The position numbers and the translations under genes are program-made. Shown one piece after another: positions 38,489-45,628 of a DNA stretch of 45,628 bases (positions within the stretch are counted from its first letter, which is position 1; every line of letters starts with the position of its first letter). This DNA is from Candidatus Rifleibacteriota bacterium (GTDB lineage: Bacteria; Muiribacteriota; Ozemobacteria; Ozemobacterales; Ozemobacteraceae). The stretch covers positions 1 to 45,628 of the forward strand of contig JANJVH010000061.1 in assembly GCA_024710195.1 (NCBI GenBank), in the 5' to 3' direction. The notes beneath the pieces are model-generated. The model saw nothing but the letters and a program-made list of their open reading frames with translations. It searched no databases and was not told where the DNA came from.

Positions 38489-38899
38489 ATGGAAGAAAAA
38501 AAGATAAATATCGGGCAGCTCGCTGAATTGAGCGGCGTCAGCCGCCGAACCATCAGGTTTTACGTGCAGAATGGTCTGCTGCAGCCGCCTCTGGGCGCCG
38601 GGCGCGGCCATTACTACACCGAAGACCATCTGCGTGACCTGTTGCGCATAAAAACCCTCAAAGAAAACAATCTCAGTCTCGAAGAAGTGGCCGGGCAGCT
38701 GCGTGGCAAGAATGAGCCCGATTCTGCGGCTTACCCGTTGCCGACTGCCTGGGTTCGCATCGAGGTCGGCCCGGGTATCGAACTGAATGTTCAGGGGGGT
38801 GTTTATCCGGTGACCCCGGCCAGAATCAGAAAACTGCAGAAGTTCGTTCATCAGCTGTTTGGCACAAATTCAACCCAGGGAGAGGTTTCTGATGAGTAA
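38489..38899 (+). CDS. MerR family transcriptional regulator
   Basis: The N-terminal HTH INIGQLAELSGVSRRTIRFYVQNGLL and a coiled-coil dimerisation region are present. It overlaps the next gene by 8 nt. Confidence 0.8.
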   Translation: MEEKKINIGQLAELSGVSRRTIRFYVQNGLLQPPLGAGRGHYYTEDHLRDLLRIKTLKENNLSLEEVAGQLRGKNEPDSAAYPLPTAWVRIEVGPGIELNVQGGVYPVTPARIRKLQKFVHQLFGTNSTQGEVSDE

Positions 38900-41210
38900 T
38901 ATTTACTGTTCATTGCACGACAAAACCAACGACAGGCTTGTTCCGTTGCAGGCGGTAGCCGTAAAGGGTCTGGTTAACGGCCTTTCGGTGAACTGGCAGG
39001 TAATTCAGCGTTTCACCAATAATGAAAAAAAGGCAATCGAGGCGGTTTTTTCCTTTCCGTTGCCCGCCGGCGCCACACTGGGTTCTCTTAAAATACTCAC
39101 CGGCGACCGGGTTATTACCGCGGCCGTTGAAGAGCGTGAGAAAGCATTCGAAAAATATGACGAAGCGACAAGCGAAGGCGATGGAGCTTTTTTGCTCGAC
39201 CAGGAACGCCCGGATCTTTTTGTCATGAGTCTCGGCAATCTTCTGCCCGGGCAGCAGGTTGAAATTCAGCTGGGCATGTTTCAGCTGCTCGAGGCTCAGG
39301 CAGATTCAGCAAGAGTTTCTTTTCCGGTGGTGATCGTGCCCAGATATTTTCCGGCCGCGAGTGCTGCCGAGATGTCTGAGTGGGAGAGAATCACTCCCGA
39401 TTATGCCGCACGGGTTCCTTATGGCTTCAGTTTCAATCTCAAGGTAATGCAGAATTCGGCGCTGCGCACCGTAGAGTCACCGAGTCACCCGATCAGAGTT
39501 GAACTGGGCCAGAATGAGGCCGATGTGTGTCTTGCACAGGCTTCGGTAATGCCTGATAAAGATATTGTGGTCAACTTTTCGCTGGCCGAAAAAATCAGAC
39601 CGGCTGTTACACACTGTGTTTTCAACGGCCGTGAGCATCTGCTGGTTGAGCTTTTTCCGGAGATCGAGACCGGAGAGCCGGCAGCCCCGAAAGAAGTGGT
39701 TTTTGTGGTCGATTGCTCGGGGTCAATGCAGGGTGATTCGATTCGAGAGGCGGTTAATGCTCTGCAGCTTTGTGTCAGATCTTTGAATGAGGGCGATTAT
39801 TTTCAGATTGTCTGCTTTGGCAGCAGCTTCAGGCGCCTTTTCAAAAAGCCGCAGGTTTTACATGACCAGTCGCTGGAAGAAGCTACCCGCCTGATTTCTG
39901 GCATCGGGGCTGATATGGGCGGCACTGAGATTCTGCCGGCCATGCAGGTTGCTGTTGAAGGCCTGCAGACCGAATTTGCCAGTCTGGTGCTTTTTACCGA
40001 CGGTGAAGTCGGTAACGAAAAAGAAGTGATCGACTTTGCGGTCAGCAGTCGCAGCCGTTGCCGGGTATTTTCGTTCGGTATCGGCAATGGCGTCAGCGAA
40101 TCGCTGGTGCGTGGGGTTGCCGATCGCAGTGGTGGTGCCGCCGAGTTTGTTTTTCCGGGCGAACGCATCGAGCCAAAGGTGCTGCGTCAGTTCAAACGGC
40201 TATCGGCGCCGATTCTTTCAGAAATAACCGCTGACTGGAGCTGTGGAGGACTTGAGAGTGCTCCGTTGTCCTTCAATAGGCTGTTTTCTGGTGAGGTGAT
40301 ACGGTTTGCCGCCCGGGCAGAGTCTGGCAAGCCATTGCCATCCGATCTGAAGGTAACTCTTTCGGCAATGTGTGGTGCAAAAAAGCTGGTTTATACGGCC
40401 GAAGCGCCGCGGTCGTCAGTCGGCAGCGTTCCGGCACTGTGGTGGGCGCAGAAATACATCGAAATGCTCGACAATGGCGAAGCAAAGACTGCTTCGGGTA
40501 GTCATCAGAATCGAAAGAAAGCAAAGAATGCCGATGCTGAAATGATCGAAATGTCGAAAGAATACGGCATCATCTGCTCGAAAACCAGTTACATAGGGAT
40601 AGAAGAGCGCTGCAAAAGCGAAAAGAATGATGGTCGGGTCGAGCTGCGGCGTATCCCGGTTATGGTGCCGGCCGGTCGCGATTTTATGGGCAGCGTTGCC
40701 GGCGGTGGCATCATTTCGCGGTGCTGCAATTATCTTGCTGATTCTTTTGTGGCCTGTATTTCGCCGGCCCCGGCGATTTTGCGCAGTCTTAATGAAGACT
40801 CGGGCAAATGCTACTCTGCGCCGGTCAGTCGCTCGATGCCTTCCGGGACTGGTGCCGATCGGGTCGCAAAATCTGCAATTGAAATGCCGTTTGTTCCGTC
40901 GGCCCCGGCCGGCAAAGAAGACAGAATCGTTGAAATCCTGGTATTTGCCGGCTCAGATGGCTTGTTCAAACACTCTGAAAAGCTTCTCAGTCTTATCGCT
41001 GCCAGTGAAGCCGACTTTGCGGCACAGCTGGCACTGGCGCCGGCTGGTCTCGCGCCAGCTGACAAAGAAAAGTTTGCGATGTCGCTGCTGGTTAAAACCT
41101 ACCTCGAAAACAATTGCCAACCCGAGAAAGATCTCTGGTCGGCAATTGTCGAAAAGGGCTGGCGCAAGCTGCAGGCAATGACTCTGGCGGATATGCCGGA
41201 TAATCTGTAG
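38892..41210 (+). CDS. VIT (vault protein inter-alpha-trypsin) plus von Willebrand factor A domain protein with a long C-terminal region
   Basis: A GGGAGAGG RBS precedes the start. The N-terminal VIT-like beta domain is followed by a vWA domain with the MIDAS motif DCSGSM...T.G (VVFVVDCSGSMQG, TDGEVGN). The C-terminal approximately 330 aa are of unknown function. Confidence 0.8.
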   Translation: MSNIYCSLHDKTNDRLVPLQAVAVKGLVNGLSVNWQVIQRFTNNEKKAIEAVFSFPLPAGATLGSLKILTGDRVITAAVEEREKAFEKYDEATSEGDGAFLLDQERPDLFVMSLGNLLPGQQVEIQLGMFQLLEAQADSARVSFPVVIVPRYFPAASAAEMSEWERITPDYAARVPYGFSFNLKVMQNSALRTVESPSHPIRVELGQNEADVCLAQASVMPDKDIVVNFSLAEKIRPAVTHCVFNGREHLLVELFPEIETGEPAAPKEVVFVVDCSGSMQGDSIREAVNALQLCVRSLNEGDYFQIVCFGSSFRRLFKKPQVLHDQSLEEATRLISGIGADMGGTEILPAMQVAVEGLQTEFASLVLFTDGEVGNEKEVIDFAVSSRSRCRVFSFGIGNGVSESLVRGVADRSGGAAEFVFPGERIEPKVLRQFKRLSAPILSEITADWSCGGLESAPLSFNRLFSGEVIRFAARAESGKPLPSDLKVTLSAMCGAKKLVYTAEAPRSSVGSVPALWWAQKYIEMLDNGEAKTASGSHQNRKKAKNADAEMIEMSKEYGIICSKTSYIGIEERCKSEKNDGRVELRRIPVMVPAGRDFMGSVAGGGIISRCCNYLADSFVACISPAPAILRSLNEDSGKCYSAPVSRSMPSGTGADRVAKSAIEMPFVPSAPAGKEDRIVEILVFAGSDGLFKHSEKLLSLIAASEADFAAQLALAPAGLAPADKEKFAMSLLVKTYLENNCQPEKDLWSAIVEKGWRKLQAMTLADMPDNL

Positions 41211-41269
41211 TTACGCTGCATGTTATAATCAACCCGATGAGTTTTTTACAGAATCTTTGATCGAGGTTA

Positions 41270-44544: not shown

Positions 44545-44686
44545 GATTTCCGGCGGGAATCTGCCCCAATTGCCAATATTAAGGCGTTTTAGTGTGTCTG
44601 ACCTGCTTCTTACGACTGCCGATTGCGCAATTTCTCTCTGTCAGTATAATTAATAGCTCAGGTAGTATTCTGGGGTGGAGGCTTTT

Positions 44687-45628
44687 ATGCGCAGATATTT
44701 TCTTGCCCTTTCGCTGGCGGTTGCAGGCTGCTTTGCTCCTTCTGATGTTATGGCCGGGCTGATGACTCAGGTGTCGCCAAATATCAGCATCGGCTTTGGC
44801 CCTTCTAAACGGGGCGAAACCGGCCTGGATACTGAGTTTATCAAATTCGTCGATGGCGCCAGAAAAACTCTGCACGGAGCTTTTTTCGAAATTCGTCTCG
44901 ATTCGGTTGTCGATGCCTTCATTCGCGCGAAGAAACGCGGCGTTGACGTTAAGCTGGTCGTTGACAACAACTACTACTTTCTGCCGCCAGATCCGGCAAC
45001 CCAGGACGATGTCGATTCGCTGACACCGCACCCGATAAAGGCTCCGGCCCGTCGCAATGGCGCTCAGCCGGTTCAACCTGAACTCAACCCTTTTATTGCC
45101 AGACTTCTGGCTGCCGGCGTTGAAGTCTTAGATGACAACAACCGCTCCAGCCTGATGCACAACAAATTCGGTATTCGCGATGGCGAATCTGTCTGGACGG
45201 GCAGCTTCAATCTCACCGATACCTGCAGTTATAAAAACCCCAACAACGCCATTCAGGTTAAGTCTAAAGAGCTGGCCGCCATTTATTCGGCCGAATTTAA
45301 AGAAATGTTCTTCGACCGCTCGTTTGGCCCAAGTTCGCCACGCCATGCCGAGCGTCAGATGGTCAAAGTCGATGATACCAACATCGAAGTATTTTTCGCA
45401 CCCGAAGACAACCCGAATGCCCGCATTGCCGAGGCCATTTCTGAAGCCGAAAAAGAAGTGTTTTTTATGCAGTTTGCCTTTACTGCTGACGATCTTCGCG
45501 ATCTGCTGATCAAAAAATTCAAAGCGGGTTGCGATGTTAAGGGCATTTTCGATCGCATGCTCTACCGCAGCACCGGCCCGTTCGGCGAATTTTCACACCT
45601 GACCGAGGTCGGTATTCCGGTCAGAATC
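44687..45628 (+). CDS. phospholipase D family lipoprotein (two HKD-type domains), 3'-truncated by the window end
   Basis: A GGAGG RBS precedes the start. The signal/lipobox is MRRYFLALSLAVAGC. The first HKD motif is HNKFGIRDGESVWTGSFNLT, and a second PLD-like repeat begins at about FAPEDNPNARIAEAI. The start coordinate is +/-1 nt and the ORF runs to the window end. Confidence 0.75.
   Translation, partial: MRRYFLALSLAVAGCFAPSDVMAGLMTQVSPNISIGFGPSKRGETGLDTEFIKFVDGARKTLHGAFFEIRLDSVVDAFIRAKKRGVDVKLVVDNNYYFLPPDPATQDDVDSLTPHPIKAPARRNGAQPVQPELNPFIARLLAAGVEVLDDNNRSSLMHNKFGIRDGESVWTGSFNLTDTCSYKNPNNAIQVKSKELAAIYSAEFKEMFFDRSFGPSSPRHAERQMVKVDDTNIEVFFAPEDNPNARIAEAISEAEKEVFFMQFAFTADDLRDLLIKKFKAGCDVKGIFDRMLYRSTGPFGEFSHLTEVGIPVRI

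Follow-up and report, generated by a model that had tools for sequence, protein, structure and literature searches.

Near the end of a 45,628-nucleotide stretch of DNA from a Candidatus Rifleibacteriota bacterium (assembly GCA_024710195.1, contig JANJVH010000061.1; the whole stretch is referred to here as the window), six genes follow each other on one strand. They encode a MerR-type regulator, a protein with a VIT and a von Willebrand factor A domain (VIT-vWA), a histidine kinase (HK), a receiver joined to an HDOD domain (REC-HDOD), a receiver joined to a PP2C-type phosphatase (REC-PP2C) and a PLD-family lipoprotein. The question raised by this locus is whether the six genes constitute one signalling system. 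A sequence-only reading had assumed that they do and had described them as a two-component analogue of the TerY-P triad. The layout on which this proposal was built, six co-directional genes with overlaps of 8 nt (MerR/VIT-vWA) and 1 nt (REC-HDOD/REC-PP2C), was borne out by the listing of open reading frames (ORFs) and by direct reading of the sequence, and the domain calls for all six genes, for which an assignment by hidden Markov models had been suggested, were reproduced with Pfam. Runs of six or seven genes in one direction are nothing out of the ordinary in bacterial chromosomes, so that clustering alone provides no evidence of a system. Comparison with related loci led to a different answer: we consider it highly probable that the region consists of two functionally independent units that stand side by side only through a recent deletion. 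Module A comprises the MerR and VIT-vWA genes, while module B comprises the triad of HK, REC-HDOD and REC-PP2C genes, with the lipoprotein gene loosely joined to it.

The comparison covered 80 loci that carry a VIT-vWA homologue, each with up to 10 kb of flanking sequence per side, taken from a scan of species-representative genomes. The six window proteins were searched against these loci by tblastn and the ORFs were re-extracted; 74 loci held enough upstream sequence for the gene preceding VIT-vWA to be assessed. In 69 of these 74, a MerR gene is located directly upstream, with its stop and the vWA start mostly -14 to +3 nt apart. The pair is present in at least 12 phyla, its carriers belonging to Riflebacteria, Myxococcota, Calditrichota, Desulfobacterota, Thermodesulfobacteriota, Acidobacteriota, Planctomycetota, Chloroflexota, Spirochaetota, Bacteroidota (Rhodothermales), Bipolaricaulota, Eisenbacteria, Alpha-, Beta- and Gammaproteobacteria and one metagenome-assembled genome of Synechococcus. 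All-against-all clustering of the approximately 1,060 ORFs of the 80 loci yielded only two recurrent families, VIT-vWA and MerR; no third gene recurs beside the pair. The HK, REC-HDOD, REC-PP2C and PLD genes follow the pair in a single one of the 80 loci (L002, an 83% relative), in which an extra ~2 kb lies between pair and kinase gene. Contigs of the window's own species (e.g. GCA_024710025.1) show the same six-gene arrangement, identical to that of the window.

The closest VIT-vWA homologues are found in Candidatus Riflebacteria/Ozemobacteraceae, and in this group pair and triad are arranged in several ways. Two loci hold the pair alone, namely L081 (vWA identity 56%, no triad nearby) and L083 (50%); the contig of the latter carries, ~28 kb away, the order PLD-PLD-HK-REC-HDOD-REC-PP2C (L085). 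In L084 (vWA identity 58%), six genes spanning ~5 kb, two of them on the minus strand, separate the pair from the HK, REC-HDOD, PP2C and PLD genes, while L086 shows the reversed order, with the triad followed by five unrelated genes and then the pair. In Ozemobacter sibiricus (L089), IS1595, HK, REC-HDOD, REC-PP2C and TerB follow one another, with no pair within 7 kb. In the relatives, pair and triad are 2-28 kb apart, are divided by opposite-strand genes or occur in reversed order. The sequence-only reading had named conservation of gene order as a check; spacing, order and intervening genes turned out to vary even within the phylum. The triad is a conserved operon of its own in Riflebacteria, with or without module A nearby. 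In L085, L086 and L089 its REC-HDOD gene runs 4 nt into the REC-PP2C gene, and its proteins are slow-evolving: REC-HDOD is 74% identical in a genome whose VIT-vWA is only 50% identical to that of the window.

The event that brought the two modules together is visible in an alignment of the window DNA with L002. The window tracks the 3' end of the L002 vWA gene to ~41176 and, past a 14-nt junction (41177-41190), continues with L002 sequence from ~1.9 kb further on, just upstream of the L002 HK gene (ATATGCCGGA.AA.CTG ... TGTTATAAT). The gap of only 59 nt between vWA and HK in the window is thus due to a deletion of ~1.9 kb in the window's species. Two minus-strand genes occupy the interval between vWA and HK in L002 and L084, where their orthologues share 72% and 70% identity; the first of them, directly after vWA, is common to L001, L002 and L084, the second to L002 and L084. 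The deletion rewrote the last vWA codons (41177-41210), which now encode ...QAMTLADMPDNL compared to ...QKWSAGGLSA in the 82% relative, and left the conserved helical C-terminal domain of the protein untouched. Upstream of the HK gene we found an extended -10 element (Table 1) that is present in four genomes, being identical in L002 and reading TGgTATACT in L085 and TGtTATACT in L086, both of which have unrelated upstream genes. Module B keeps its own predicted promoter.

Against these data, a model in which all six genes work as one system, with VIT-vWA as sensor or substrate of an HK/PP2C switch and the whole as a TerY-P analogue under MerR control, appears very improbable. The model would be in line with the common direction and short gaps of the six genes, with a vWA-HK interval that holds no terminator, with the identical arrangement in same-species contigs, with the distance of often less than 30 kb between pair and triad in Riflebacteria, and with the TerB-domain genes that adjoin the triad in L089 and lie near it in L086. 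However, each of the two units is conserved in the absence of the other (the pair alone in at least 12 phyla), order, distance and strand of the intervening genes vary, and the adjacency was made by a deletion next to an HK gene with its own conserved promoter. The likeness to TerY-P is likewise partial. That triad consists of a TerY-like vWA protein, a PP2C phosphatase and a Ser/Thr kinase fused to a zinc ribbon or OB fold (Anantharaman et al. 2012, summarised in PMC11090510), and the region resembles it in that nearby genes on one strand encode a vWA protein with an intact metal-ion-dependent adhesion site (MIDAS), a phosphatase of the PP2C superfamily and a protein kinase. The phosphatase indeed belongs to this superfamily (SpoIIE, E=5.5e-35), although it is fused to a receiver and of the SpoIIE/RsbU type, which usually acts on STAS proteins. 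The vWA protein is not a TerY-like single domain but a 772-aa VIT-vWA of the ITIH1/PARP4 kind and scores 17.3 bits against Pfam vWA-TerF-like (cut-off 29.4). HATPase_c and an HEINTP H-box mark the kinase as a histidine kinase, not a Ser/Thr kinase, and it shows no Pkinase domain. Linkage of pair and triad is restricted to the same species and one 83% relative (with the ~2-kb insert) and is absent in 69 other pair loci. We regard the six-gene single-system model as largely refuted by this comparison of sequences.

Table 1. Features of the window discussed in the text (positions in the 45,628-nt stretch)
Feature	Position	Strand	Size or sequence	Matches and remarks
MerR regulator	38489-38899	+	136 aa	Pfam MerR_1, E=8e-19
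VIT-vWA protein	38892-41210	+	772 aa	Pfam VIT, 8e-27; VWA_3, 6e-23
HK	41270-42163	+	297 aa	Pfam HATPase_c, 3e-26; HisKA sub-threshold (E=0.004)
REC-HDOD	42179-43393	+	404 aa, GTG start	HDOD, 2e-51; Response_reg, 4.5e-8
REC-PP2C	43393-44544	+	383 aa	SpoIIE, 5.5e-35; Response_reg, 2e-15
PLD lipoprotein	from 44687, cut by window end (45628)	+		PLDc_2, 5e-26; lipobox MRRYFLALSLAVAGC
Sigma-70-type promoter, first hexamer	38454-38459	+	TTGACA	17-nt spacer to second hexamer
Sigma-70-type promoter, second hexamer	38477-38482	+	TATATT
First dyad	38439-38449	+	ACAGTAAGTGT	fits family GACAGT-N-ACTGTC-type element
Second dyad	38447-38459	+	TGTCAtatTGACA	read from sequence
Third dyad	38456-38465	+	GACAgaTGTC	read from sequence
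Extended -10 element of HK operon	41221-41229	+	TGtTATAAT	read from sequence
-10-like hexamer	38450-38455		CATATT	directly follows family-type dyad
Four-codon mini-ORF	38461-38475	+	ATG TCG AAA AAG TGA	5 nt after CATATT
Major vault protein homologue	15910-18393	+	full-length	Pfam MVP_shoulder, E=6e-30; Vault_3
Sodium:solute symporter (SSF), then sCache-PAS-DUF294 nucleotidyltransferase sensor protein	29818-34345	+
Hybrid sensor kinase	35101-38301	-	1066 aa	dCache-PAS-HisKA-HATPase-REC

Module A starts from a sigma-70-type promoter, TTGACA-17-TATATT, which is the sole 11/12 consensus match in the region. The ATG of MerR is situated 6 nt after the -10 hexamer and has no Shine-Dalgarno motif; the VIT-vWA gene starts with an ATG behind the Shine-Dalgarno sequence GGAGAGG, inside the 8-nt overlap with MerR. 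The dyads of the window (38439-38465) overlap the -35 hexamer, and the first of them is conserved in L001-L004. A common architecture is seen across phyla, namely a near-consensus -35, a spacer of 16-18 nt that holds a GACAGT-N1-3-ACTGTC-type dyad, and a -10 hexamer that is followed at 6-7 nt by the start codon. For 63 non-redundant homologous loci we searched the 40 nt before the MerR start for dyads and compared the counts with those of a control region. The strict dyad is present in 27 of 63 loci and in none of the 63 controls (shuffles average 0.035), and a looser ACA-N-TGT dyad in 47/63 compared to 2/63. A -10-like hexamer with its end 4-9 nt ahead of the start codon occurs at 46/63 loci (control 5/63), and a Shine-Dalgarno-like motif before the MerR start at only 4/63. 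Given this position of the hexamer and the rarity of Shine-Dalgarno motifs, the MerR mRNA is very probably leaderless, so that the leaderless consensus promoter of the sequence-only reading is strongly backed by the comparison across homologous loci.

MerR-type activation proceeds by DNA untwisting at promoters whose spacers typically measure 19-20 nt. Since the operator is placed in an optimally spaced (17-nt) promoter and not in a 19-20-nt spacer, we infer that autorepression by MerR is favoured over activation. A LexA/SOS box was considered for the dyad and rejected: the element reads ACAGT..ACTGT, the reverse of the LexA-box arrangement CTGT-N8-ACAG. Within the same upstream region, the four-codon mini-ORF and the CATATT hexamer (Table 1) look like the remnant of an ancestral operator, -10 element and leaderless start, located ~28 nt upstream of the present promoter.

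The MerR protein consists of a winged helix-turn-helix (HTH; residues ~7-72), a short linker, a conserved beta-hairpin (residues 88-102, motif PG.E.) and a helix (110-124), and can be aligned end to end with 69 partners across phyla. Cys is absent from it, as is the long coiled coil seen in classical MerR proteins. Of the AlphaFold2 (AF2) model (pLDDT 76), only residues ~1-75 have a counterpart in solved MerR structures; the structural matches of the HTH include GlnR, TnrA, CvkR and CbpM, and also CueR/CadR over the first ~75 residues. A metal link had been suggested on account of the MerR gene, which is not indicated by a protein without Cys and without a metal-binding loop. Assignment to the metal-sensing class (MerR, CueR, ZntR, CadR) was rejected, as the long dimerisation helix is missing as well and the NCBIfam metal-sensor equivalogs score 33-40 bits against cut-offs of 147-168. 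NCBIfam further returned weak similarity to HspR and TnrA. These belong to a set of regulators, TnrA/GlnR with glutamine synthetase, HspR with DnaK, CbpM with CbpA, and CvkR, that are under the control of partner proteins or act as plain repressors and are likewise short MerR-type winged HTH proteins without a metal site. They also resemble the window protein in the overlap of operator and promoter, whereas the operator sequence differs and the C-terminal beta-hairpin/helix domain is unique to the family of the window MerR.

The VIT-vWA protein has a complete MIDAS (D274, S276, S278, T345, D370), and the corresponding columns are invariant among the homologues. An ITIH-like body extends to residue ~590; after it come a disordered linker (residues 591-672) and, at 673-768, a small helical domain that is conserved. 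Of the 330-aa C-terminal region that the sequence-only reading had called uncharacterised, about half (residues 420-590) therefore belongs to the ITIH-like fold, contrary to that description, and the remainder is the linker plus the helical domain. The best sequence match in the PDB is the VIT-vWA region of PARP4 (E=1.5e-33), and a Foldseek search with the AF2 model (pLDDT 76) returned ITIH1 (E=5e-36) over ~600 residues. None of 71 VIT-vWA homologues shows a signal-peptide-like N-terminal hydrophobic segment, and the protein is predicted to be cytoplasmic. The marine proteobacterial sortase target TIGR03788 has the VIT-vWA-ITIH-like region in common with it (residues 27-600, E=2e-86). Membership in this family was rejected, with 291 bits against a cut-off of 551.65 and no signal peptide in the window protein; neither an LPXTG motif with a transmembrane anchor nor a sortase neighbour was found in the window or the 71 homologues.

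Bacterial intracellular VIT-vWFA proteins have been placed in a clade with VWA5A (PMC10539598). One VIT-VWA protein, the 708-aa LT3126 of Limnobacter thiooxidans, is near-silent at baseline and is induced by gamma rays 21.6-fold at the RNA and 30-fold at the protein level; heat and oxidative stress induce it too, and its overexpression protects cells ~200-fold (preprint 10.64898/2026.05.23.727404). Neither of these two sources mentions a MerR neighbour, and we found no description of a MerR and VIT-vWA pair in the literature searched. VWA5A/BCSC-1, Dictyostelium Vwa1, the PARP4 region and LT3126 share the combination of VIT, vWA and ITIH-like body without a signal peptide, but the reports on them make no mention of a MerR partner, a conserved operator or a leaderless promoter. 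The eukaryotic proteins of this kind work with ubiquitin-ligase or vault partners, which are absent here. MerR plus VIT-vWA is apparently an undescribed pairing with a conserved cis-regulatory logic, built of known domain families.

A vault-related gene was noticed elsewhere in the window. A full-length bacterial homologue of the eukaryotic major vault protein (MVP; Table 1) is located ~20 kb from VIT-vWA, for which PARP4, a vault protein, is the closest relative of solved structure. It matches MVP chains in the PDB with E~4e-17 over residues 483-774, its N-terminal repeats look MVP-like, and the MVP-like family comprises 654 representative clusters at E<=1e-30. Bacterial MVP homologues have already been reported (PMC3762200). 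A link to vaults was rejected, because no VIT-vWA, MerR or other conserved neighbour was found within 10 kb of 80 MVP-like metagenome loci; the VIT-vWA loci contain no MVP-like gene.

In the window, a MerR gene with the family's C-terminal domain overlaps the gene of a VIT-vWA protein without a signal peptide, and promoter and dyad precede both. Module A (38439-41210) would on this basis be a self-contained two-gene cassette. The small MerR protein would be made from a leaderless mRNA and bind the GACA/TGTC dyads over its own promoter, thereby most likely keeping expression close to nil until repression is lifted by a stress signal. The second gene, translationally coupled to the first, would then yield a cytoplasmic VIT-vWA scaffold of the ITIH/PARP4/VWA5A type that acts through its MIDAS by metal-dependent protein binding. 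The Cys-free C-terminal beta-hairpin/helix of MerR is the likely site of signal input, and this input may be VIT-vWA itself, as in the pairs TnrA-glutamine synthetase or HspR-DnaK. Taking these steps together, we put forward, as a plausible reading that falls somewhat short of probable, an ancient and horizontally spread two-gene cassette for stress or damage, present in at least 12 phyla, in which an autorepressed MerR with a new sensing domain is made from a leaderless mRNA and acts at a GACAGT-N-ACTGTC operator, the MIDAS scaffold is the prokaryotic counterpart of the VIT-vWA part of VWA5A and PARP4, and LT3126 is one member.

The scattered occurrence of the pair across phyla and its variable flanks could also be explained by a role in conflict with invaders. 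Here VIT-vWA would detect or sequester a component of the invader, for instance of a phage, and MerR would keep the cassette off until infection. Some copies do stand in such surroundings: that on plasmid pTB101 of Aquabacterium olei (L093, 3044-5603) adjoins an AbiEii toxin gene and a DNA methyltransferase, and that on a plasmid of Massilia sp. H6 (L094, 3019-5696) an Imm74 immunity gene, a relaxase fragment and an IS256 transposase, while BrxL, Cas6, reverse transcriptases, WYL and HipA are matched by a few flanking genes. A repressor gene without a leader is, moreover, a typical trait of phages and mobile elements. Nonetheless, housekeeping genes prevail in the chromosomal flanks and among the 108 flanking genes, of which a handful are from defence or mobile elements and none is consistent, and no VIT-vWA homologue was found in 50,697 phage records. 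The cassette encodes no nuclease, NTPase or other effector. No PADLOC model matched VIT-vWA, and of MerR only the HTH had a match (mad1); the scan of all six proteins gave generic HTH, HD and PLD similarities only. Moreover, the sole experimental lead, LT3126, points to radiation, heat and oxidative stress. We therefore hold a conflict or anti-phage cassette to be improbable and retain the stress cassette as the working model for module A. In RefSeq, the regulator of a plasmid copy is in one case labelled only as a 'helix-turn-helix domain-containing protein'.

Module B, for its part, consists of familiar components. The phospho-acceptor of the kinase is His37 in the H-box GITHEINTP; the protein has no sensor domain, and no transmembrane segment is visible in its sequence. 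NCBIfam T2SS_HK spans residues 23-291 (DHp-CA) with E=2e-48, below the cut-off of that model, and the Ozemobacter orthologue is longer (440 aa compared to 297 aa). In REC-PP2C, the receiver is canonical (D9, D10, D53 and the Lys) and the metal motifs of the phosphatase (DVDGDF, GDVMGKG, SDGLWD, DDLT) are intact. A His37 kinase with HATPase_c, a full acidic pocket in REC-PP2C and conservation within one operon together identify a two-component system.

The receiver of REC-HDOD deviates from this pattern. In an alignment with CheY, Glu56 occupies the position of Asp57, the second residue of the acidic pocket is Pro and the Lys is kept; the Glu that the sequence-only reading had seen at the phospho-acceptor thus holds on realignment. 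The domain scores 33.7 bits against Response_reg, above the cut-off of 30.2. Among the top 116 REC-HDOD homologues the acceptor is Glu in 45 and Asp in 70. Because all aligned Glu examples stem from the Riflebacterial clade, the alignment points to a lineage-specific conversion of Asp to Glu, and the retention of Glu56 throughout this clade, with Asp in the homologues of other phyla, agrees with the earlier view of a pseudo-receiver. Outside the phylum, the Asp-type orthologues adjoin REC-HD-GYP-type proteins and extra receivers, and in a Tectimicrobiota locus also a PAS-kinase gene. The same combination of Glu for Asp, loss of the second acidic residue, a retained Lys and an HDOD output is known from aspartate-less receivers (Maule et al. 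2015, PMC4395418), among which Glu is the commonest substitution and HDOD outputs are enriched; Asp-to-Glu alone does not always make a receiver constitutively active (PMC4395418). Compared to other members of this class, the receiver described here is a clade-specific derivative of Asp orthologues and belongs to a fixed operon with a sensor-less HK and REC-PP2C.

REC-PP2C in turn has counterparts in partner-switching pathways, namely Bacillus cereus RsbK-RsbY, Pseudomonas HptB-HsbR-HsbA and Pseudomonas RssB, which likewise combine a canonical receiver with a SpoIIE/PP2C domain and have a kinase alongside; the NCBIfam model RssB_Pseudo gives a partial match (86 bits against a cut-off of 700). 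These systems differ from module B, which has an additional aspartate-less REC-HDOD and no STAS or anti-sigma partner found nearby. We thus picture module B (41221-44544), with the PLD gene loosely joined, as a two-component operon of an ordinary kind that holds several regulators and has a promoter to itself. The soluble HK would autophosphorylate on His37 and pass the phosphate to Asp53 of REC-PP2C, switching its Ser/Thr phosphatase activity, while the Glu56 receiver-HDOD protein would be non-phosphorylatable and probably serve as a constitutive modulator or scaffold of kinase or phosphatase. In this composition, an aspartate-less receiver-HDOD plus a receiver-controlled PP2C, module B falls among known kinds as an ordinary representative. 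In Ozemobacter sibiricus a TerB-domain gene directly follows REC-PP2C (L089, 9689-10141), and a faint TerB match lies between triad and pair in L086 (5726-6121). A tellurite or Ter-type stress link of module B is possible; the window's own cluster contains no TerB gene.

The PLD-family (HKD) lipoprotein is a frequent, not a constant, neighbour of module B and is loosely associated with it. In same-species contigs it is complete (638 aa) and followed by an esterase gene on the same strand. Module B, lipoprotein and esterase might together form a unit for remodelling of envelope lipids, in which kinase and PP2C control, or answer to, the periplasmic PLD protein. The PLDc_2 gene does adjoin the triad in the window, L002, L084 and L085, where two copies are present upstream of the triad, and the same-strand esterase would suit such a function. 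The PLD gene is not beside the triad in L086 and L089, however, its position flips from downstream to upstream, the gap to PP2C measures 142 nt, and there is no known mechanism by which a PP2C in the cytoplasm would be linked to a lipoprotein in the periplasm. We consider the remodelling unit unlikely and keep to the reading of module B as a two-component operon with a loosely associated PLD gene.

Upstream of the six genes, the hybrid sensor kinase (Table 1) is divergent from MerR. It is found beside MerR also in L084, L001-L003 and L090-L092, and beside REC-PP2C in L085; such a hybrid kinase needs an Hpt partner, and none was seen. Further upstream, the symporter and the DUF294 sensor protein, together with a small DUF485 gene that precedes the symporter in same-species contigs, form what looks like a conserved transporter-plus-sensor set.

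Several points have to be weighed against the two-module reading and its details. The modules are 0-30 kb apart in five of seven Riflebacterial contexts, which may reflect a weak functional link between them instead of residual synteny, and all relatives are metagenome-assembled contigs. No intrinsic terminator was found between the vWA stop and the HK start in the window, where read-through from the MerR promoter into module B is possible; such read-through would be an accident of the deletion. The three intergenic stretches gave no match to Rfam, and neither terminators outside coding sequence nor longer inverted repeats were seen in them. Concerning module B, the larger genes of the 45.6-kb window and the neighbours of the triad in five relatives showed neither a STAS nor an anti-sigma gene. 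With respect to module A, the dyads of the window and its closest relatives are placed over and upstream of the -35, not in the spacer, and the regulatory logic in this lineage may be different in detail. Finally, LT3126 is a likely, and as yet putative, member of the MerR-paired family.

For the screening of genomes, the locus shows that a tidy, overlapping run of signalling genes that looked new was recognised, with few related loci, as a juxtaposition made by a deletion. The Riflebacterial operon of module B offers a clean natural conversion of Asp to Glu within a fixed operon and is useful for the study of pseudo-receivers. As to module A, the function of VIT-vWA proteins is obscure in all domains of life, be it VWA5A/BCSC-1, the PARP4 region or the ITIH heavy chains. 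If the proposed cassette is real, its pair of regulator and operator would explain both the silent basal state and the strong induction of LT3126, and if the link to LT3126 holds, the cassette would provide a genetic handle on the role and switching of cytoplasmic VIT-vWA proteins.

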